Notes: a model not told the origin generated them from the sequence alone. Shown: positions 5-12,983, counted from the stretch's first letter. The stretch is DNA of 17,197 nucleotides from an uncultured archaeon (GCA_964589775.1 CAZPUN010000030.1:1-17197), one strand, 5' to 3'. Translations and numbers: made by a program.

Positions 5-931
5 TTAAAGTCTGTATTTCATACTGTCTTGCGCCCCAACCTCATCATTGACCTCATCATTGACCTCATCATTGACCTCATCATTGACCTCATCATTGAC
101 CTCATCATTGACCTCATCATTGACCTCATCATTGACCTCATCATTGACCTCATCATCGTTTGACTCAATAGTATCATTGCTCGCTATCTTTACTACCCAA
201 CTATCATACTCCTTAACAAACATATCATCCAATAAACTAAAACACATCATTTCTTTTCCTTTTCGTACTTTCAGTTTCTCATAGATCCATTCCGATATTT
301 TTGATACCCCGAATTTCATTGCATCCACTAGTATCTCTGTCAGAATTGCAAATATTATTGCAGACATAATTTGTAGCACGGGCATTTGGTGTGGCAGATG
401 CCTGTTATATTGTATGGGGGTATCTTCTATATATGTTTTATTCAGATTTTGGACCATTTCACCGTATTGAGTATTCATTAATGTGATATAATCAATACCT
501 ACATTATGAATGACCTGCCCAAAATGCTTTATCCCACCCGTTCGATAAGCATCTGAAATAATCCATCTTAGATCTTTTCGAATTGGACAGTACTCAATAC
601 TTTGGTGTGGTCTATTATTATATGCGAATTGCGAATAATCCATTATTTGAAAATCAAGCAATTGATTTTGTTTTATAGAGCCTACATTTTCTGAAACTTG
701 TTTGCGGATTTTGAAATTATATTGTGTACGAAATACTTGTTTTTTGTTCTTATGATTAAATTTTCCCACAAAATTTGAATTATGTTTTGTATGTGTTAAT
801 TTCTGAATGCTGTGTGTGAGTGTTTTTATCCTTATATATACTGAAAAATCAGTTGGTGTTTTCATATTACGAATGTTATCCATTAGCATGTGTGTCTTAT
901 AGTATTGTGTTATTGTTAAACTCCCCCGCAT
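5..931 (-). CDS. Hypothetical protein with a hydrophobic/amphipathic helix and an acidic C-terminal (NDEV)9 repeat tail
   Basis: 308-codon ORF in AT-rich DNA. Hydrophobic segment MSAIIFAILTEILVDAMKFGVSKISEWIYEKLK. A decayed copy at ~5455-5607 keeps the peptide motifs, partly through synonymous changes, which supports coding status. Start codon uncertain and no family recognised. Confidence 0.6.
   Translation of the reverse strand: MRGSLTITQYYKTHMLMDNIRNMKTPTDFSVYIRIKTLTHSIQKLTHTKHNSNFVGKFNHKNKKQVFRTQYNFKIRKQVSENVGSIKQNQLLDFQIMDYSQFAYNNRPHQSIEYCPIRKDLRWIISDAYRTGGIKHFGQVIHNVGIDYITLMNTQYGEMVQNLNKTYIEDTPIQYNRHLPHQMPVLQIMSAIIFAILTEILVDAMKFGVSKISEWIYEKLKVRKGKEMMCFSLLDDMFVKEYDSWVVKIASNDTIESNDDEVNDEVNDEVNDEVNDEVNDEVNDEVNDEVNDEVNDEVGAQDSMKYRL
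39..158. repeat. 12-bp tandem repeat ACCTCATCATTG, 9 perfect copies plus one single-mismatch copy
   Basis: Read directly: perfect units at 39-146, last unit ACCTCATCATCG at 147-158. Encodes DDEV(NDEV)9 on the minus strand. No spacers. Confidence 0.98.
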
Positions 932-1092: not shown

Positions 1093-2229
1093 TCAATTGG
1101 GTGTTAAGCATGGTACGCTGTTAAGTAATTTTTCTACTGTGTAAGCTATGTAATATGGATGATGCTCGCTTCCCGTCCATAATAGGACGATTAGATTACC
1201 AAAATGGTATAATCTTTGTGCCAATGCTATTGAGACCGGATGTGGGACTTTCAGAGCAAGGTACAATGTGCTTTTTGTTGTTTCTAGTATTTGTTCAAAG
1301 ATTGTTGAGATTTTGATAAATGCAGCAGATGAAATCTCTTTGACATCCTTACTTGGCAACCATTGATCACTCTTTGATGATTTTATCTCGATCCATGCGT
1401 CTGCATTTGGGCATGTTTGTTTAATATTGAAATCTTTTCTCGCAAGTGATTCAGTTATATTGATAAAAATAACCGGATATTTGATTCCAAACTCTTTTAC
1501 TAGATCTGGAAGATCTTCTATATCTACAGTTGTTGTTTGATTTGTTTGAAAGTGATGTACGATGGCGAAAAATTCTATTTTTTCCTTATATTGTGATGGA
1601 CTCGGGCGAGACTGCCATACTTTTTTCATTTTTTTCTTTGAGAAGTCCCATACTATATATTTCTGGTGAGATTTTCCTAAGAATAAGCCTAATGCGAATG
1701 ATACTGGTATTGGTGTTTCATTATCGATGTATATATGCATAACTGTATTTTCAGTTCCGAATAGGTATTCTTGCAGAATTTTTAGTTTGTACCAAGTTTG
1801 ATTTATCAAGTCGTACACTTTTTTGTATGGGTTTTCGTTTGGGATTCGCACGAGGTATAAGTTATCCTCTGTAAGTGCAGTTTTGGTGCCTAATAGAGAA
1901 TCAAATTTATCTATGTTTACTTTTCTATATCTCCATCCCATATTAGCTTTTAATATTTTCAACGTATCTACCGAACTACCTATTACAAATGGGACATTAT
2001 GTACTGATTTGTACCGAATCATTCCACTTATGAAGCTTCCGAGTATAATAAAAAGTATTTTTAGTGTCATGGTATATATTGAGGAAGTTATAACTGGAAT
2101 ATTTTGAAGCGGAAATTGATCTATTATTGTAAAAATCTCCGGAAATGAGATAATCAATAGAATAGTTGCATTAGCTGATAAGATAAAATCTTTTGTATAT
2201 TTGCCTCCGGCAATAAAATAGTCTATCAT
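1093..2229 (-). CDS. 2TM-SAVED domain protein (membrane effector with a cyclic-oligonucleotide sensor; Saf-2TM/Cap14-like architecture)
   Basis: Two N-terminal hydrophobic segments (FILSANATILLIISFPEIFTII; IYTMTLKILFIILGSFISGMI). Two pseudo-symmetric SAVED lobe motifs follow, HIYIDNETPIPVSFALGLFL and LYLALKVPHPVSIALAQRL...VLLW...HPYY. ATG at 2229 is preceded by the SD-like AGGAGTAGAGG and is preferred over the GTG at 2247. Confidence 0.8.
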   Translation of the reverse strand: MIDYFIAGGKYTKDFILSANATILLIISFPEIFTIIDQFPLQNIPVITSSIYTMTLKILFIILGSFISGMIRYKSVHNVPFVIGSSVDTLKILKANMGWRYRKVNIDKFDSLLGTKTALTEDNLYLVRIPNENPYKKVYDLINQTWYKLKILQEYLFGTENTVMHIYIDNETPIPVSFALGLFLGKSHQKYIVWDFSKKKMKKVWQSRPSPSQYKEKIEFFAIVHHFQTNQTTTVDIEDLPDLVKEFGIKYPVIFINITESLARKDFNIKQTCPNADAWIEIKSSKSDQWLPSKDVKEISSAAFIKISTIFEQILETTKSTLYLALKVPHPVSIALAQRLYHFGNLIVLLWTGSEHHPYYIAYTVEKLLNSVPCLTPN

Positions 2230-2265
2230 AACCTCTACTCCTAACACATAATATTCATTATATAC

Positions 2266-2285
2266 ACTTTTTATAATAAAAAAGT
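2266..2285. promoter_or_regulatory. AT-rich inverted repeat / TATA-like element between herA and the SAVED gene
   Basis: ACTTTTT-N6-AAAAAGT; the minus strand contains TTATAAAA about 40 bp upstream of ATG 2229. Could be an internal promoter or a T-tract terminator. Confidence 0.3.
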
Positions 2286-2286
2286 T

Positions 2287-3810: not shown

Positions 3811-5217
3811 TTACCCCAGAATATCTTGTACGCCTGAATGAAGAGCACTCCTTATCATTGCGGCGATTTCTTCGCTCAAGAATCCATTATGCCGGCTACA
3901 TAACAACTCAGCAGCGGAAATAACTCCAGGTCCTGCATCAATATCATTTGAAGCTGCCGGAATTGTATTCGTGTATAAAATATCTAAAATTTCTTTGTAG
4001 TCTTCTTCTGGATGATTTGAGATAAGTTCGATTTTGAATACATTTGGTTCTCTCTTGAAATAAAATTCATACCAATTGTTAATTTTCATACGGCCTTTTT
4101 CGACGGGTCTATGTATAAGGCATGTTGCATCGCCATCTTCAAGTATGCTCATAAGAAAGTTTAGATCATTCGTATCTGTAACCTTAATTCCATATTCTGT
4201 TTTGAGAACTTTTTGGATATATCTATCATGGGAAATCCTACTTATTCCTACGATTGGAATATCTAAGTTTCCTGATTTAAATACTAGATCTAAGAATAAT
4301 TCTTCAGATTCCTTATATAATTTGGTTAATTCCCGGCTGATCTTCTTGATGAATCCATGCGTCTTAAGTGTTCCTTGATGTAATAAGAATTTCAGCTCAT
4401 CCTTATGTTTTTCTATTGTATTTATGTCAAGCCGATAATGCAAATTCGTTTTCAAAACGCGTGCAGCTTCATTCCTAGCAGATTCAAGTATGTCCGGAAA
4501 ATCTGTTATTATTTCATAAAATGGGTCTACTTCACTAATCGGATAATTCTCTTCAATAGGTATTATCGTCGGAATTGAATCTTTAATCGATTTATTTTCG
4601 TCCATAATCCCTCTATTGTAATACGCAACATATACAGATGCACTAAGTATCACCATCGACATAACTGCAAAATTTGAAATGCGATAGTTTCTCAAAGAAC
4701 TTTTTGAAACTGTACCCGCAAACCATATGTTATGTAATCTTAATCTTCTTGCGATCTTTTTATTTATTAACCATTTCCCCATAAATCCATACTCTTTTAA
4801 TTTTTCATTGATTTCTAAATTCCTAATCTGTTTAACAAAATGTTCATCCCATGCGATATCTAAATTAATCTTCTGTAATACTGATTGAACTTTTTTTCTA
4901 ATTTGTGGATTCTCCCATTCTTCCCCAGTATAATCAATCAGGTTTTCAATGGAAATTTGACTTTTGGGATCTAACGGATCTATCTTAACAATTGCAGCAT
5001 ATTTTTCATGATTTACTCTATATTTCCCATTTCCCAAATAAATTAGAAAGTTAATGTCGCGTAGATGCTTTAGATAATTCCTTATTGCTCTCTCCGTTAG
5101 GTTTAATGCTTCTGCAAGGTCTTTGCCTGTAAATTCTCCCTTTGTATAATCTAATTCGATCGCTTTTTGAATTACATCATTTATTCGGGCTTTCAGGGTC
5201 GATACTGTCTTTCCCAG
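3811..5217 (-). CDS. nurA: wHTH-NurA-like fusion protein, NurA domain apparently catalytically inactive (about 468 aa, CTG start)
   Basis: The frame of ORF 3811..5037 stays open for 60 more codons to CTG at 5217, which has SD AGGGGG upstream. The extension encodes a wHTH (FTGKDLAEALNLTERAIRNYLKHLRDINFLIYLGNGKYRV). NurA-type motifs: IPIVGISR, NDLNFLMSILEDGD, YEFYFK...VFKIEL, PGVISAAELLC. Directly adjacent to herA. Confidence 0.75.
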   Translation of the reverse strand: MGKTVSTLKARINDVIQKAIELDYTKGEFTGKDLAEALNLTERAIRNYLKHLRDINFLIYLGNGKYRVNHEKYAAIVKIDPLDPKSQISIENLIDYTGEEWENPQIRKKVQSVLQKINLDIAWDEHFVKQIRNLEINEKLKEYGFMGKWLINKKIARRLRLHNIWFAGTVSKSSLRNYRISNFAVMSMVILSASVYVAYYNRGIMDENKSIKDSIPTIIPIEENYPISEVDPFYEIITDFPDILESARNEAARVLKTNLHYRLDINTIEKHKDELKFLLHQGTLKTHGFIKKISRELTKLYKESEELFLDLVFKSGNLDIPIVGISRISHDRYIQKVLKTEYGIKVTDTNDLNFLMSILEDGDATCLIHRPVEKGRMKINNWYEFYFKREPNVFKIELISNHPEEDYKEILDILYTNTIPAASNDIDAGPGVISAAELLCSRHNGFLSEEIAAMIRSALHSGVQDILG

Positions 5218-5271
5218 AACAATTCCCCCTTACATTATATTTCCTTTTTGGTCATATATTATTTATATTAC

Positions 5272-5308
5272 AAAGATATATAAAGATATATATAAATGAA
5301 CTCGTTCA
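5272..5308 (-). promoter_or_regulatory. Putative promoter/operator of the wHTH-NurA/HerA cassette
   Basis: Minus-strand TTTATATA at 5296-5289, overlapping a tandem 10-bp repeat AAAGATATAT (5272-5281, 5282-5291) and flanked by the palindrome TGAAC-TC-GTTCA (5297-5308). Confidence 0.4.
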
Positions 5309-5454
5309 AAAAAAGGTTCCATCATAAATATACGATTTTTATTTATTCAATAATTTATTTTCAATCAGCGATCTTTGCGGGCTACTTTTCAACAGACGGA
5401 TATCATATCTTCTTATGGCCTGTTCTACATGTGAATAAACTGATCATCTTTTTG

Positions 5455-5607
5455 TGGTGTGGCAGATGCCTATTATATTTTGTGTCATTTCCTTATATTA
5501 TATACTTTATTCAAATCATGGACCATTTAATCTTATCATTGTCTCATTTGAAAATATAGAATCTACTTATTTACTGAATAGCTTACACAAAATGCTTTAT
5601 CTCCACC
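5455..5607 (-). pseudogene. Frameshifted relic paralogous to the central part of the 5..931 gene
   Basis: Three collinear exact matches: TGGTGTGGCAGATGCCT (387-403 vs 5455-5471), TGGACCATTT (450-459 vs 5519-5528) and CAAAATGCTTTATC (520-533 vs 5588-5601), with offsets 5068/5069/5068. Peptides IKHFV, MVHDLNKVY and YNRHLPHH compare with IKHFG, MVQNLNKTY and YNRHLPHQ, and are no longer in a single frame. Confidence 0.8.
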
Positions 5608-5803
5608 ATTTGAAACAATGGACATTTTTAATTGGGTCCCTATATTTCGTCTCAGTCATATCAAATGTTAAAAATTAGATCAAAATGTAAATGATTATCG
5701 TGTATTGCATATTTTTCGCTATATCTACATTTAATTCATAAACAGAGAAAATGAATAGTTGTGTCCTGCCATTTCACTGTGTCGAGTGCCTTTTGCAAAT
5801 CAA

Positions 5804-5866
5804 TTATTTATTATTCATTATTCATTATTCATTATTTATTATTTATTATTTATTATTCATTATTCA
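5804..5866. repeat. Heptamer tandem repeat TTATT(C/T)A x9
   Basis: Read directly: TTATTTA, 3x TTATTCA, 3x TTATTTA, 2x TTATTCA. Confidence 0.92.
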
Positions 5867-5919
5867 CTTATGCATTCTTGTTTATTTCTAATTGTATTTT
5901 CTCTATTTAGTTGTTATTG

Positions 5920-5958
5920 TATTTATTGTTGGTTTTATTATTATTTATTGTTGGTTTT
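5920..5958. repeat. 17-bp direct repeat TATTTATTGTTGGTTTT x2
   Basis: Copies at 5920-5936 and 5942-5958. Confidence 0.85.
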
Positions 5959-6570
5959 CAAAGATCTGCATAGTATGGCACTCTACACTTTAGTGTGGCA
6001 GTGCACATTATATTATTTCTATTTATTATTAAATGAATATTATTTTAAAAATATTCCTATAATTTATAGTGTTAAAATCATTGTATTGGAGCAGTGATTT
6101 GATTAATTTTTTATCTTTAAAATCATTAATTTTACTAAATTGTACTTTTAGTATTATTAAAAAGTTGAAAAATACTGATTTTCTAATTAAATATAAATTT
6201 CTTAAAGTGATTGGAGATATTTTTCGTGAGTGCCTCACGTATATATGATTTATGATAAAATAAGACTTTTGAGATTGCATGATTTTATGTAATTTTTCAG
6301 ACTATTAATTCGATTTCAAATTTGGGTCCTTTGATCATTAAAATTTGACGATATAATAATACATAATGTTTTCGTCCTAAAAAGAGAAAATTATGGGATT
6401 TTTCAATTTGTAATAGGAAATATCTATTTTGCAATTGTTAATTTATGATTCATTCAGAAATATTTTATTCAAAAAATGCCTGAAATATAATTTTCTATTT
6501 TTTCTACGGACTATTACTAACTTAAGTATATAATTTAATGAGCCACAAAAAAGTAAATTAATTCGACTAG

Positions 6571-6581
6571 TTTATAAGCTT
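6571..6581 (+). promoter_or_regulatory. TATA-box-like element upstream of the amidotransferase gene
   Basis: TTTATAAGCTT about 50 bp upstream of ATG 6623; the same 11-mer occurs at 11420-11430 upstream of the wHTH regulator. Confidence 0.45.
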
Positions 6582-6622
6582 TTGATTTTTATCAAATCAA
6601 AAATTTAAAGATGTGAGCGATA

Positions 6623-7372
6623 ATGTGCAGATTGTATGCGATTATTTCTGATTCATTTATTGATGGAAATTTTATCGACAGTGCATTAAATTATTTAAGT
6701 CCATTAAGTAAAAAGCACAAAGATGGTTGGGGTGTTGGATATTACAATTTTGGGCGTCCTATGATTTATAAAAGCGACAAGTCTCTTTATATGGATACTT
6801 TTCCGGAATCACTTCGTAAAGACTTAAAAAATTCGAAAATTATCTTTTTCCATATTCGAAGGGCGAGTCCTGGTATTGCCATTAATATGGATAATGTTCA
6901 TCCTTTCAAGCTGGGTAATTACATTTTTGCTCATAATGGAACAATTAATAATTATAAGGATAGAATTTTACCGCAATTAAGTAGAAAAGTACAACAATCC
7001 TTGAGTGATCATACGGACTCTGAAGCGATGTTTTATTATCTATATGACAAGCTAATACAAGGGTATTCCTACAAAGAATCATTTGAGAAACTTTTGGGCA
7101 TATTAGATAACGATTTTACTGCACTCAACACTATGCTATCTGATGGTTTGTCATTTTATGTTACAAACCTATGGAATATCAAGCCAAATTATCATTCATT
7201 GTATTATCGAATAATTGAGGAAGAAGAAACTCGTACAATGATGATACGTTCGACAGCAGATTCTAAAAATGACGAAGATATTGCTCCGATTGGTCCAGAA
7301 TGGATAAAAATTGGGAATCACAAGATGATGATAGTATCGCCAAATCTTGAGATTCGAATGGAGGACATATAA
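6623..7372 (+). CDS. Class II (Ntn) glutamine amidotransferase, YafJ/EgtC-like stand-alone family
   Basis: N-terminal nucleophile MCRL, HKDGWGVGYY, HIRRAS, NVHPF, FAHNGTI, TDSE. Confidence 0.93.
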   Translation: MCRLYAIISDSFIDGNFIDSALNYLSPLSKKHKDGWGVGYYNFGRPMIYKSDKSLYMDTFPESLRKDLKNSKIIFFHIRRASPGIAINMDNVHPFKLGNYIFAHNGTINNYKDRILPQLSRKVQQSLSDHTDSEAMFYYLYDKLIQGYSYKESFEKLLGILDNDFTALNTMLSDGLSFYVTNLWNIKPNYHSLYYRIIEEEETRTMMIRSTADSKNDEDIAPIGPEWIKIGNHKMMIVSPNLEIRMEDI

Positions 7373-8217: not shown

Positions 8218-9221
8218 TTTGTTGCCCTCCTTACATGAAGTATGAACTCCCTTAGGTCTATTCCCACCGGGCAGACGTCATAGCACCTTCCGCATCCTGT
8301 ACAATGGTACGCTCCATATATTAGAAAATGATATGCGAACTTGTGATATAGTCGTTGTCGCATTCTTGCAGTGTCTTCCTTGCGTATATTTTCGCCTCCT
8401 GCAACACGAGTGAATGATGGCAAAAGGCATGAGTCCCAATCTCTTATGCGCTCGCCATATTTTGTTTCCTCATCGTAAATATCTGTGGCATTATAGCAGA
8501 AACAAGAGGGACATACGAAATTACACCCACCGCACATAATACATCTGTCTGCGAAATCTTGAATGATTGGGTCGTCCCATTTGATTTCATTATGGATCCC
8601 AGATACCGGGATATCCGGTAGTTTTTCCATAACTGCATTAAGGCGTTCTTGTTTCATCTGGACATGTTCATCTGTGGCATCATAAAAATATTGAATGTAA
8701 TGATCCACAAGTGCCTGTCCTTTTTCGCTTCCCACATCAACAAAATAGCAGTCTCCAATATCCGTGAATTGTAAATCGAAGCCGTTCTGTGCTGAAGGTC
8801 CACCTAGATTCTTACAGAATCCATGTTCACATGGTGTTGTACATGAAAAATTGATGATAATCGTGTTTTCTTTTCGTTTCATGTAATATGGATCGATTTT
8901 AAAAGTATCTTCAAGTCTTTGCATGCCTCGTAGGTCACATGATCTATATCCGAAAATTACCTGCTTCTTATAGTCTTTTTTAACTGAAACTTCAATTTTC
9001 TTATCCTTTTTATAGCTGAATAAGGTTTCGAATTGTGGGTATAGAAATTCTTTGGGCCCTACTAATGTATGAGCATCTATGAATTCTGAACCATTCTGTA
9101 TCTCGTCGAACACAATATCATTCAATGTCTTTTTGGGTGATATTACTGTGTATTCGTCCTTGATTAGTGCATCGATCAGTTGTGGAACCTTTGTTTTTAC
9201 AATGACAAATGCTTCATCCAT
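8214..9221 (-). CDS. 4Fe-4S dicluster subunit, sulfhydrogenase beta (HydB)/AsrA-like
   Basis: PKEFLYPQFETL, GYRSCD, CTTPCEHGFC, RCIMCGGCNFVCPSCFC, RDWDSC, RMRQRLYHKF, CTGCGRCYDVCPVGID. TAATG overlap with the fdh gene. Confidence 0.92.
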   Translation of the reverse strand: MDEAFVIVKTKVPQLIDALIKDEYTVISPKKTLNDIVFDEIQNGSEFIDAHTLVGPKEFLYPQFETLFSYKKDKKIEVSVKKDYKKQVIFGYRSCDLRGMQRLEDTFKIDPYYMKRKENTIIINFSCTTPCEHGFCKNLGGPSAQNGFDLQFTDIGDCYFVDVGSEKGQALVDHYIQYFYDATDEHVQMKQERLNAVMEKLPDIPVSGIHNEIKWDDPIIQDFADRCIMCGGCNFVCPSCFCYNATDIYDEETKYGERIRDWDSCLLPSFTRVAGGENIRKEDTARMRQRLYHKFAYHFLIYGAYHCTGCGRCYDVCPVGIDLREFILHVRRATK

Positions 9222-11254
9222 TATTCAATCGCCTCCACTTTTACTGGTGTGACTTTATATTCGGGAATGTATGATACCGGATCATGGTTGTGTAAGGTGA
9301 GCAGATTCGCAGGGTCTTCAGTGAAATGAAATGGCATAAATATCGTTTTAGACGTTAATTTCTTGTTGAACCGTACGGTTGCTGTTACTGAGCCGTTTGG
9401 AGAAGTAACCTTAACTCGTTGATGCTCCCTTATTCCCAGTTCTTTTGCATCGTTGGGATTTATCTCAATATAGTTTTCAGGTTCCTCCCTCTCTAATATT
9501 GAGATCTTTCGTGTCATTGTACCTGTATGCCAATGGAAATACGAACGCCCAGTTGTAAGAATGAATGGATATTCATCAGTTCTCCAACCAGGTGGGTGTT
9601 TCCAATCAATAGCATGGAATTTACCTTTTCCGCGTGTGAATTTCTTAGAATGCAGATATGGAGTGCCCGGATGGTCTGGTGAATAGCATGGCCATTGTAC
9701 TCCAACTCCATTTGTAATTCGTTCCCACGTCATCCCGCCGTAAATTCGTGCATATTTGTTGATTTCATCCATTATTTCTTTTGCGCTCGTATAATGCATT
9801 GGCAATCCAAATTTAGTAGAAACTTCGCAAATAATTTCATAATCTTTCTTCACTCCTTCTAACGGGGGTATTGCAGCTTCAAATCCTTGGACTCGTCGTT
9901 CCGTGTTTGTGTATGAGCCATCTTTTTCAAGCCAAGATGTTCCCGGTAGAATAACATGTGCATACTGTGCAGTCTCGGTCAGAAATATATCCTGTACAAT
10001 GAGAAGTTCTAATTTCTTTAGTGCTTCAATAGTATACTCCTGATGTGGGTCGCTTAATACAGGATTCTCTGCCATAATATATGCAGCTTTGATCTTTCCT
10101 TCATGCATTAGGGGTATCGCTTCTGTGAGTGTAATTCCGGGTACACTTGGTAGTTTCGTGTTCCATGCGTCTTCCCAGATTTTTCTTCGCTCATCTACAT
10201 CCACTCTTGCATATCCCGGTAAGTATTCTGGTAGTGCACCAAGATCGCACGCACCCTGAACATTGTTCTGGCCTCTTAATGGATTAACGCCTGTGCCGGG
10301 CTTTCCTACGTTTCCAGTAAGTAATGCGAGATTTGCAACTGCCATTACATTATTTGTTCCTGATGTGTGTTGTGTAATTCCCATCGCATAGAAAATCATT
10401 GCAGTTTCAGCTTCGGCATAGAGATGAGCTGCCTTTTCGAGGTTTTCCGGTGGTACTCCTGTAATCTTTGATACATATTCTGGAGTGTATTTTTCCACTC
10501 CTTTCACAAGTTCTTCGAACCCCTCAGTTCGTTCTTCGATAAATTTCTTATCATAAATTTCATCGCGGATAATTACATGCGCAAGCCCGTTTAATAATGG
10601 TACATCTGTGCCGGGCAAATGAGAAAGTTGTACTTTGGCAAATCTTGATAATCGTAACTCTCTTGGATCTGCAAGTATTAAAGGTGTGCCATTCTTTGCA
10701 GCTTCTATGATTCTAGATCCGATTAATGGATGTTGTTCTGTAGTATTTGAACCTATTACAAAAATTGCACCAGTTTCATAAATCTCATTTATACTGTTTG
10801 TCATGGCACCTGAACCAAACGCATTGATCAATCCAGAAACAGTAGGTGCATGACAGAGTCGTGCGCAATGGTCTACATTATTAGTTCCAATTCCAGCTCG
10901 TGCGAATTTTTGCAGCAGGTAATTCTCCTCATTTGTACATTTTGCTGAAGATAGTACCATAATACTATCTGGGCCGTATTTATCTCTAATTTCTCTAAGT
11001 TTAGTTGCTGCAAAATCGATAGCTTTGTTCCACGAGACTTTCTCAAATTTTCCATTTATTTTCATAAGTGGATCTCTTAATCGTTTCGGGTGCATTACAA
11101 ATTGAAAACTTTTCCAACCCTTTATACATAATGAACCTTTTGCTACTGGATGTGATTTTGAAGGTACAATTCCTACTGGCTTTCCATTTTTTATATCTAC
11201 AAACAATCCACATCCTGTCCCACAAAATGGGCAGATTGTGTATTTTTTAACCAC
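9221..11254 (-). CDS. fdhF: Formate dehydrogenase alpha (catalytic Mo/W-bisPGD) subunit, cysteine type
   Basis: TICPFCGTGC...LCIKG [4Fe-4S] motif, SAKCTNEENY, active site DHCARLCH (TGT Cys), PLRGQNNVQGACD, TNTERRVQ, C-terminal LTTGR...HWHTGTMTR and FMPFHF. GTG start with SD GAAGGTGA. Confidence 0.96.
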   Translation of the reverse strand: MVKKYTICPFCGTGCGLFVDIKNGKPVGIVPSKSHPVAKGSLCIKGWKSFQFVMHPKRLRDPLMKINGKFEKVSWNKAIDFAATKLREIRDKYGPDSIMVLSSAKCTNEENYLLQKFARAGIGTNNVDHCARLCHAPTVSGLINAFGSGAMTNSINEIYETGAIFVIGSNTTEQHPLIGSRIIEAAKNGTPLILADPRELRLSRFAKVQLSHLPGTDVPLLNGLAHVIIRDEIYDKKFIEERTEGFEELVKGVEKYTPEYVSKITGVPPENLEKAAHLYAEAETAMIFYAMGITQHTSGTNNVMAVANLALLTGNVGKPGTGVNPLRGQNNVQGACDLGALPEYLPGYARVDVDERRKIWEDAWNTKLPSVPGITLTEAIPLMHEGKIKAAYIMAENPVLSDPHQEYTIEALKKLELLIVQDIFLTETAQYAHVILPGTSWLEKDGSYTNTERRVQGFEAAIPPLEGVKKDYEIICEVSTKFGLPMHYTSAKEIMDEINKYARIYGGMTWERITNGVGVQWPCYSPDHPGTPYLHSKKFTRGKGKFHAIDWKHPPGWRTDEYPFILTTGRSYFHWHTGTMTRKISILEREEPENYIEINPNDAKELGIREHQRVKVTSPNGSVTATVRFNKKLTSKTIFMPFHFTEDPANLLTLHNHDPVSYIPEYKVTPVKVEAIE

Positions 11255-11501: not shown

Positions 11502-12983
11502 ATGTCCCACCCCCCTAAAATCGACCCCAAAACATATGAATTTATGAATCTATTTAATATACCTTTACAAAAAGCATTTGCGACTCTACCTGAGTCTGAG
11601 TTATCTAAAATTGAAGATATATATTTGAAGCTTAATCCAAAAATGAATACGGTATTTATGGATGTATTTTTCCTGTATCTTACAAGCATTTTGAGAAACT
11701 ATAATTCAAACTATATGAAAATATTACAAAACTACTGGAAATTACATTCTCAAAAAATAATAATACCCTATTTTGTATATAATTCACCAAAGGATTATGA
11801 CATTTTATTTGATAAAGAAGATTATATTTGTAAGTTGTTGAACTACGCAATAAATATTGATAAAAATGATCCAGATGCTACGAGCAAATATATCTTTTTC
11901 TTTCAACTTCTTCTTGATGAACTTCCTATAAAGATGACGCAAAAGGAATTTCTTGCTTTTAATGAAATTCTAACAAAAAGGATCACGAAAGCAAGCGAAC
12001 TAGCAAAAAATAGTACTATGAATCCAACACACGCATCACGTATATTTAATACTCTCTTAAAGCGTCGTATCATAAGGAAAAAAGGGCTTTTAAACCTAAA
12101 TAAATTAGGATTTGATATTTTTCTCGTTATTGCACAATTGAGAGAGGCATCTACAAAACGAATGTTTTTGGGACCGTGGACATATTCTGAAATTCTTTCC
12201 ATAAACGATGATCGACTACGTTTTATGAATTTTCTAATTCCTCGTTATTGGATATCAAAATATCAGAACCCATACCAAAAATTAAGTTCCCTTATATCTG
12301 AAAATAAAAATGTTGATAGTGTGGAAGTATTCAAATTCTATTTAAAAGGAAGTAGTTATAATTTTTCAAATTTTGATTTTCGAACCGGTAAATGGAAAGC
12401 GATCGATTATAACAAAATACTTCAACGGTGGGAATCTGGCAATATGGTTCCGTTGCCTCCACAATCTTCCAATAACTCAAATACAATTCATCTGAAAAAT
12501 ATACATCTGAAAATACTTCAAACAATTTGGGATTATGGTCCATTATCCGTAAAAGAACTAAGGCACATTGTCAAAATTAACTACAATCAATTTATCAAAT
12601 ACTATAATGCACTTAAAGAAAATAATTATTTTGCTGAAGCTGTCTTTCCAAGTTTGCATTTGACCAAAAATGAAATCTTTCTAATGGCTGAAACAACTAT
12701 TGATGAATGGCGAAGAATTGCGTATGCTTTAATGGAAAATCCCATTTTATATTATGGACTTTATGAATCAGATGACAATAAATACTACGGTGTATATCAT
12801 ATTAGAACTTCCGAGACTGGTTTTAATCTTATATCTACAGTTTTTCGCGAAATGGTTAGCAAGCTTCATCTTGCGATTTTCAATGAAATAACAAAAGAAA
12901 AGATCTGGACATTACCTATTGAACGATGGAATGAAGAAAAGCAGCACTTTGAAATTCTTGAGGATGATTTTATTTTTTCATGA
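11502..12983 (+). CDS. Large transcriptional regulator with two Lrp/AsnC-like winged HTH modules
   Basis: wHTH1 MTQKEFLAFNEIL...ASELAKNSTMNPTHASRIFNTLLKRRII followed by the Lrp-type linker LNLNKLGF. wHTH2 LKNIHLKILQTIWDYGPLSVKELRHIVKINYNQFIKYYNALKENNYF. Divergent from fdh. Confidence 0.72.
   Translation: MSHPPKIDPKTYEFMNLFNIPLQKAFATLPESELSKIEDIYLKLNPKMNTVFMDVFFLYLTSILRNYNSNYMKILQNYWKLHSQKIIIPYFVYNSPKDYDILFDKEDYICKLLNYAINIDKNDPDATSKYIFFFQLLLDELPIKMTQKEFLAFNEILTKRITKASELAKNSTMNPTHASRIFNTLLKRRIIRKKGLLNLNKLGFDIFLVIAQLREASTKRMFLGPWTYSEILSINDDRLRFMNFLIPRYWISKYQNPYQKLSSLISENKNVDSVEVFKFYLKGSSYNFSNFDFRTGKWKAIDYNKILQRWESGNMVPLPPQSSNNSNTIHLKNIHLKILQTIWDYGPLSVKELRHIVKINYNQFIKYYNALKENNYFAEAVFPSLHLTKNEIFLMAETTIDEWRRIAYALMENPILYYGLYESDDNKYYGVYHIRTSETGFNLISTVFREMVSKLHLAIFNEITKEKIWTLPIERWNEEKQHFEILEDDFIFS

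Follow-up and report, generated by a model that had tools for sequence, protein, structure and literature searches.

[quoted passage not shown]

We report here a gene of an uncultured archaeon whose product, judged by its predicted fold, is a two-helix membrane protein with a two-lobed SAVED domain (2TM-SAVED), and which probably functions as a membrane-anchored SAVED receptor and ancillary effector of the type III CRISPR-Cas systems encoded in the same genome. The observations behind this reading are the architecture of the protein, the SAVED fold, the presence of intact Cas10 cyclases in the genome, and the CRISPR-Cas neighbourhoods in which other members of the family are found. The stretch of DNA analysed (the window) is the entire contig C30 (17,197 bp) of a metagenome-assembled genome (MAG) of 64 contigs, 2.16 Mb in size and 96.75% complete; its best DNA match among public runs is labelled as a hydrothermal vent metagenome, and no RNA was listed among the public runs matching this DNA. 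As TM-SAVED accessory proteins have already been predicted bioinformatically for type III CRISPR (PMC9704534, citing a CARF/SAVED census), the protein is a new and highly divergent archaeal TM-SAVED and not a new kind of system.

The gene, its membrane helices and the SAVED fold

The reading frame of the 2TM-SAVED gene is intact (Table 1). An alternative in-frame start, a GTG at 2247, would give a protein of 384 instead of 378 amino acids; however, the ATG is the likely start since it is preceded by a Shine-Dalgarno-like motif (GGAG..AGAGGT) and since the alignment with the orthologue P0002 begins there. The spacer separating the gene from herA also contains an A/T-rich TATA-like box (TTTATTATAAAAA) which, as read from the sequence, is a putative promoter, and RNA folding of this spacer did not differ from that of shuffled sequences (z -0.6). 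The T-rich tract past the stop codon is a possible archaeal terminator.

Table 1. Features of the window discussed in the text, with coordinates counted from its first nucleotide
Feature	Position	Strand	Evidence or remarks
2TM-SAVED gene	1093..2229	minus	intact ORF, 378 aa from ATG at 2229
TM helix 1, residues 15-41	2107..2187	minus	hydropathy >1.5; helical in AF2 model
TM helix 2, residues 44-72	2014..2100	minus	hydropathy >1.5; helical in AF2 model
SAVED domain, residues about 76-372, two CARF-like lobes	1114..2004	minus	VIA, Foldseek, Atlas shape search
Lobe-1 motif ETPIPVSFALG, residues 171-181	1687..1719	minus	P179 and G187 (384-aa numbering) invariant in family
Lobe-2 motif KVPHPVSIALA, residues 327-337	1219..1251	minus	K.PHP.S kept in all full-length homologues
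herA-SAVED spacer, 57 nt	2230..2286	minus	TATA-like box and Shine-Dalgarno-like motif, sequence read directly
T-rich tract past SAVED stop codon	1040..1092	minus	sequence read directly
HerA-type hexameric ATPase, 506 aa	2287..3807	minus	DUF87 E 5.9e-36, HAS-barrel and HerA_C matches; PADLOC HerA E 6e-47
wHTH-NurA-like nuclease gene	3811..5236	minus	408 aa from TTG 5037; NurA fold Z 13.8
308-aa ORF with C-terminal (NDEV)x10	5..931	minus	last gene before contig end

Membrane helices were called from Kyte-Doolittle hydropathy in 19-residue windows with a threshold of 1.5, which was exceeded only at residues 14-41 and 44-76 and thus yields two TM helices. Positively charged residues are found at the N-terminus (K10 and K13) and directly past the second helix (R72 and K74), and the loop between the two helices carries none. 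By the positive-inside rule these Lys and Arg residues flank both cytoplasmic sides, and the SAVED domain should therefore face the cytoplasm. The Saf_2TM family (Pfam PF18303) gave no match in the 378-aa protein at E<=0.1; the nearest language-model clusters in the Atlas feature search were those of bacterial Saf_2TM+SAVED proteins (score 0.92-0.93, 216 shared features), in which 13-61% of the members carry Saf_2TM.

Sequence profiles alone are marginal for the SAVED domain; the fold was decisive. The Pfam SAVED profile (PF18145) scored 17.6 bits (E 0.0033, cut-off 26.2 bits) and the NCBIfam SAVED profile 16 bits (E 0.0064, cut-off 33), while the PADLOC SAVED_TIR profile matched with an E of 2.2e-7 and the homologue P0006 clears the Pfam SAVED cut-off with 26.8 bits. 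A search of PDB sequences with the family profile gave no SAVED match and only chance matches with an E of about 0.3. When the AF2 model of the protein (pLDDT 75.6) was used in Foldseek, the best 50 matches were all SAVED proteins, with a lowest E of 3.9e-9, and the Atlas shape and feature searches returned SAVED clusters only, several of them with Saf_2TM. Comparison with solved structures by VIA gave Z of 16-21 for 13 SAVED proteins, in alignments of 222-267 residues that cover about residues 81-378 of the model. The highest values were those of the CalpL SAVED domain (Z 21.1 for 9eyi and 20.0 for 7qda, over 255-267 residues) and of a viral SAVED ring nuclease (9r8s; Z 19.5), followed by Cap4 (17.8), Cap5 (17.6), SAVED-CHAT (16.8), the SAVED domain of BtCap14 (16.2) and TIR-SAVED (13.0), with unrelated folds at about 7 and below. 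In the AF2 model each of the two lobe motifs sits at the strand-to-helix junction of its Rossmann-like lobe, and both motifs are conserved across the family alignment.

These data bear on an earlier note, written from the sequence of the window alone, which had described the product as a 2TM-SAVED effector with two TM helices and one motif per lobe. Hydropathy, the AF2 model and the motifs themselves bear out this description, and the SAVED identity is upheld by the VIA and Foldseek comparisons. The note had named a Pfam SAVED search as a check: the search did return the family, and its score lies under the cut-off. It had further held that the lack of any SAVED or CARF structural match would speak against the assignment; such a match was found, with a Z of 21.1.

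Family neighbourhoods and cyclases of the same genome

The family is tiny. A phmmer search of 1.84 billion representatives gave five matches at E<1e-3, making six sequences in all, and word-indexed searches gave two matches with the protein and three with the alignment. A pattern scan of a collection of genome contigs for the family found nothing, and no member was present in any of the 40 genomes searched within the order of this archaeon (0/40). Three of the family neighbourhoods, those of P0002, P0006 and P0005, were informative; the contigs of P0003 and P0004 are too short, and P0004 is frameshifted.

The only close relative is P0002 (48% identical), which shares the synteny of the window, with genes for GNAT, a 342-aa protein, DHH, HTH, FDH and GATase_4 followed by SAVED. 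Directly behind the SAVED gene of P0002 lies a type I-D-like module (L003 11391-16757) composed of a 607-aa Cas10d-like protein (weak PADLOC matches), Csc2/Cas7d, a Cas5d-like protein and two unknowns of 111 and 473 aa; this immediate neighbour makes no cyclic oligoadenylate (cOA). The type I-D-like module has no counterpart in the genome of the window. Further downstream of P0002 there are a RAMP gene at 7.5 kb and a Cmr2 gene with GGDD at 8.4 kb, the products of which are 45% (RAMP) and 49% (Cmr2) identical to their counterparts on contig C39 of our genome. P0006 has a DUF1874/STIV_B116-like gene (E 1e-23) on one side and cas6 on the other; DUF1874 corresponds to Crn2/AcrIII-1, a family of ring nucleases specific for cA4. 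Directly past P0005 there are csx1 (Csm6 HEPN E 5e-30), an RT gene, cas1 and cas2. No CD-NTase was present in the family neighbourhoods, and cas genes were present in three.

The earlier note had called the effector an orphan with no cognate cyclase. Within the window the observation was right, as neither Cas10 nor CD-NTase was found there. The conclusion is not supported by the rest of the genome, in which two Cas10 genes lie near the start of C39, or by the siting of the orthologue and two distant homologues in CRISPR-Cas loci. The orphan call was a consequence of the limits of the window, which is a complete short contig of a fragmented MAG, and it shows that an effector seen on a short MAG contig should be called an orphan only after a check of the whole genome. 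The scan of the genome for CD-NTase, Cas10 and DAC genes that the note had proposed accordingly found the two Cas10 genes, and gave no match for DAC profiles and none for SMODS/CD-NTase at E<=1.

Annotation of positions 1-18,000 of C39 (L011) identified cas6 and then an HD-Cas10 (882 aa) with five RAMP genes behind it, as well as a Cmr module composed of a RAMP gene, Cmr2 (594 aa), Cmr3, a 133-aa ORF without family match, a RAMP gene, Cmr5 and a last RAMP gene. The GGDD cyclase motif is kept in both Cas10 proteins, at residue 649 of the HD-Cas10 and residue 390 of Cmr2. CRISPR arrays were found at the ends of four other contigs (C48, C54, C64 and C5), a position which is typical of assembly breaks.

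The absence of a CD-NTase also bears on the reading of the protein as a CBASS-type effector similar to Cap14, whose CD-NTase would have been missed by the assembly or lost, leaving a true orphan or relic. The bacterial Saf_2TM-SAVED proteins in the nearest language-model clusters and the roughly 3% of the genome that is unseen speak for such an origin; the lack of any SMODS match in the genome, the family neighbourhoods with cas genes and without CD-NTase, and a fold that matches CRISPR-type SAVEDs (Z 21) better than Cap14 (Z 16) speak against it, making this the most improbable of the readings considered here. Since a genome that is 96.75% complete gave no SMODS match, the system is not CBASS; the same result answers the suggestion of the earlier note that a CD-NTase just outside the window would turn the locus into an ordinary CBASS.

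In the present assembly the 2TM-SAVED gene and the cas genes are on separate contigs, and C30 ends 1.1 kb downstream of the gene. Look-ups of the exact 308-aa and 378-aa proteins found no other contig, and the Logan contigs of three runs, fragmentary over positions 1-2400, contained no bridge across the left end of C30, where a link to C39 was sought. If reverse-complemented C30 were joined to C39, the resulting orientations would match the SAVED-to-Cmr order of the relative.

Other potential receptors of cOA in the genome were also searched for. The type III locus of C39 has its own CARF-PIN gene, which is spread over three overlapping frames (9203-9433, 9421-9675 and 9669-10685) matching positions 1-65, 77-144 and 169-456 of one PADLOC CARF_PIN profile. 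As the pieces match consecutive parts of the profile, two frameshifts are implied in 9203-10685, so that this is either a pseudogene or decayed gene or an assembly error at low coverage. A 221-aa Csa3/CasR-like CARF protein (C20:13582-14247, L036 1279-1944; PADLOC CARF3 E 3e-17), encoded away from the cas loci, is by its sequence likely to be a cOA-responsive transcription regulator. A genome scan with a few profiles identified no further CARF genes, and DUF1874 ring nuclease and Csx1_HEPN gave no match in the genome. With the CARF-PIN gene split and the other CARF protein being a Csa3-like regulator, the TM-SAVED protein is the only apparently intact sensor with a toxic output found in the genome within the reach of that CARF scan. 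As the CARF-PIN gene of the type III locus itself appears to be frameshifted, the two Cas10 complexes may be served by this intact sensor alone.

Proposed function and relation to known systems

For the ligand, the oligomerisation and the membrane effect of the protein we infer the following sequence of events. Upon binding of target RNA by the Csm/Cmr complex, Cas10 with its GGDD motif would produce cyclic oligoadenylate, which would be bound by the cytoplasmic two-lobed SAVED domain. The SAVED domains would then associate head to tail in a ligand-driven manner, by analogy with solved SAVED proteins that self-associate on ligand (filament structures among the Foldseek SAVED matches are 9eyi, 8tl0 and 9wq3), and the N-terminal two-helix hairpins would assemble into a channel or pore. 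This would depolarise or permeabilise the membrane and halt the growth of the infected cell. The most likely cyclic oligoadenylate is cA4, a tentative choice to which we give slightly less than an even chance, made because cA4-binding SAVEDs of the CRISPR type take the first three places among the fold matches and because one homologue adjoins a DUF1874 gene. The ligand would hence be made in trans, as the earlier note had proposed, in the ordinary sense of a Cas10 product and in no sense beyond this. Its further suggestion of a non-canonical ligand such as linear oligonucleotides from DNA processing finds no support, the NurA/HerA neighbours of the gene not being conserved beside SAVED.

Several features of a type III ancillary effector are present, namely a SAVED sensor fused to an output domain (the TM hairpin) and a GGDD Cas10 in the same genome. 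Siting in or beside a type III locus is seen for the relatives, whereas in this fragmented assembly the gene and the type III modules are on the separate contigs C30 and C39.

Instead of a toxic effector, the protein could be a regulator tethered to the membrane, which would either sequester cA4 (a cOA sink) or degrade it (a ring nuclease). Of the three best structural matches two, the CalpL filament (9eyi) and the viral SAVED 9r8s, are reported to have ring-nuclease activity (PMC12751052; bioRxiv 10.1101/2024.05.08.593097), and the genome, as noted above, lacks a detectable DUF1874 ring nuclease. Nevertheless a ring nuclease has no need of a TM hairpin, and the architecture fits that of the channel-forming Cap14 (PMC10402079), so that we regard a sink or ring nuclease as unlikely.

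Among characterised proteins, the membrane effector proposed here resembles Cap14 in its architecture, and in context and fold it is closest to CalpL and other CRISPR-type SAVEDs. The Saf-2TM+SAVED protein Cap14 forms a chloride channel gated by nucleotides (PMC10402079). As in CBASS Cap14 (BtCap14, PDB 9om7) and the 3TM-SAVED filament (PDB 9wq3), a small N-terminal TM module precedes a C-terminal SAVED domain in a protein of similar length, and the likeness extends to the SAVED fold of BtCap14 and to the Saf_2TM-SAVED clusters among the language-model neighbours; the working principle of a nucleotide-gated channel or pore is, by this analogy, likely to be shared. Unlike Cap14, the protein is found in an archaeal host with a genome devoid of CD-NTase, its family is located in CRISPR-Cas loci and not in CBASS operons, there is no Pfam Saf_2TM match and identity is about 10-13%, and the expected ligand is cOA and not the 2',3'-cGAMP of Cap14.

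CalpL is a cA4 sensor which self-associates on ligand binding (PMC11229360). This type III SAVED-Lon protease (7qda, 9eyi) is the best structural match and shares the CRISPR type III context, whereas its output is a Lon protease in place of a TM hairpin, it has the partners CalpT and CalpS which are missing here, and identity is 10-15%. Type III CRISPR systems also have membrane effectors that are activated by cA4, namely Cam1 and Csx23 (PMC11229360), and the likeness to them consists in N-terminal TM helices on a cytoplasmic cOA sensor, in being type III-encoded, and in membrane depolarisation as the output proposed here. The sensor is a CARF dimer in Cam1 and a novel tetrameric domain in Csx23, whereas here it is a monomeric two-lobed SAVED domain.

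With the type III TM-SAVED class that was predicted bioinformatically (PMC9704534) the protein shares the pairing of a SAVED with a TM domain and the association with type III loci; it differs in that the divergence of its six-sequence family is too great for the SAVED cut-offs of Pfam and NCBIfam, with the result that standard annotation overlooks this divergent archaeal family. Our literature searches found no bench studies of a TM-SAVED protein in a CRISPR context, and the only characterised TM-SAVED proteins in the literature searched (Cap14 and 3TM-SAVED) belong to CBASS. The protein is thus a clean candidate for asking whether SAVED-gated channels operate downstream of Cas10.

The NurA-HerA pair and the surrounding sequence

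The order of genes on C30 toward SAVED is GATase_4 (6623-7372, plus strand), a 1.4-kb low-GC stretch, the NurA-like gene, herA, SAVED, the 308-aa ORF and the end of the contig. The 408-aa NurA-like product has a fold with Z 13.8 to S. solfataricus NurA (2ygk) and 9.0 to the HerA-NurA complex, followed by TdpAB complexes. Homologues bear a winged-helix-like N-terminal extension of about 75 aa, and the corresponding wHTH-coding part is found at 5038-5217, in frame upstream of the TTG at 5037. At 5217-5236 (minus strand) a TAA (5231-5233) comes directly behind an ATG (5234-5236). The winged-helix part of about 60 codons, which all homologues have, then follows in the same frame, and between this stop and the TTG at 5037 there is no ATG, GTG or TTG. 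The arrangement could be due to a nonsense mutation in the second codon or to an assembly error, or translation could begin at a non-canonical start past a GGGGG stretch. Two further NurA-HerA pairs are present in the genome, on C51 and C63, and the pair on C30 is therefore an extra paralogue.

Clusters of the type nurA-csm6-herA are known beside CRISPR arrays in Thermoproteales (PMC3396285), and HerA/NurA 'type III coevolved' accessory genes have emerged from a census of type III accessory genes (PMC6546367). Because CRISPR-associated NurA/HerA paralogues beside a CARF gene are thus on record, it is conceivable that NurA, HerA and SAVED form one functional unit, in which the SAVED protein would gate, or be gated by, wHTH-NurA/HerA, with cOA or oligonucleotides from DNA processing as the ligand. 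All three genes share one strand, with just 57 nt between herA and SAVED, the HerA protein is also recognised by the PADLOC model for 'Type III coevolved' HerA (E 9e-29), and a homologous NurA/HerA pair adjoins Cas7/Cas5/Cas3 genes in L028. As in the Thermoproteales clusters, an extra NurA/HerA paralogue pair adjoins the gene of a cOA sensor; unlike in those clusters, this sensor is a TM-SAVED protein encoded downstream of herA and not a CARF protein encoded between nurA and herA, and the adjacency is not conserved in relatives. None of the SAVED homologues P0002, P0006 and P0005 has NurA/HerA beside it, and the NurA homologues (L028, L034 and L035) always have a HerA gene next to them and never a SAVED gene. 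Moreover the herA-SAVED spacer bears its own TATA-like box and the NurA gene has a stop directly behind its ancestral ATG. Taken together these data render the single unit improbable, and we attach an equally low probability to its strongest form, in which wHTH-NurA/HerA and TM-SAVED would constitute a cOA-controlled, membrane-tethered DNA-degrading machine as the counterpart of the Thermoproteales nurA-csm6-herA clusters; if true, this would be the first mechanistic role for CRISPR-associated NurA/HerA paralogues. Since the linkage is not conserved, the SAVED gene has a TATA-like box of its own and the pair is absent at the orthologous locus, we favour the view that NurA/HerA and SAVED are two separable modules of one defence island.

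In the relative about 280 nt separate the GATase_4 and SAVED genes, for which reason the NurA-HerA pair together with the 1.4-kb stretch looks, from the comparison of the two sequences, like an insertion here or a deletion in the relative. This 1.4-kb stretch (5240-6620; 23-28% GC) contains short ORFs only and a 7-nt tandem repeat at 5803-5876. In addition a 152-nt sequence at 387-538, within the 308-aa ORF, is 73% identical (E 3e-11) to 5455-5607 in the same orientation; the second copy lies upstream of the NurA gene, within the AT-rich spacer, and the two copies bracket the NurA-HerA-SAVED block. They may be what is left of a duplication or insertion event, or may reflect mere AT-rich resemblance.

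Searches of Pfam, PADLOC and NCBIfam gave no family for the 308-aa ORF, and the genome contains no paralogue of it. The ORF terminates in ten perfect NDEV repeats encoded by a 12-nt unit (window 39-156). C39 likewise begins with a 24-nt tandem repeat in 3.1 copies (L011 1-75), and with both contig ends at tandem repeats these have probably caused the assembly breaks. Elsewhere in the window a 493-aa protein with weak MarR/HTH matches is encoded at 11502-12983 (plus strand). Its paralogue in the relative (28% identical; L003 17063-18544) sits between the I-D-like and Cmr modules, and the two proteins may represent a family of CRISPR-locus regulators.
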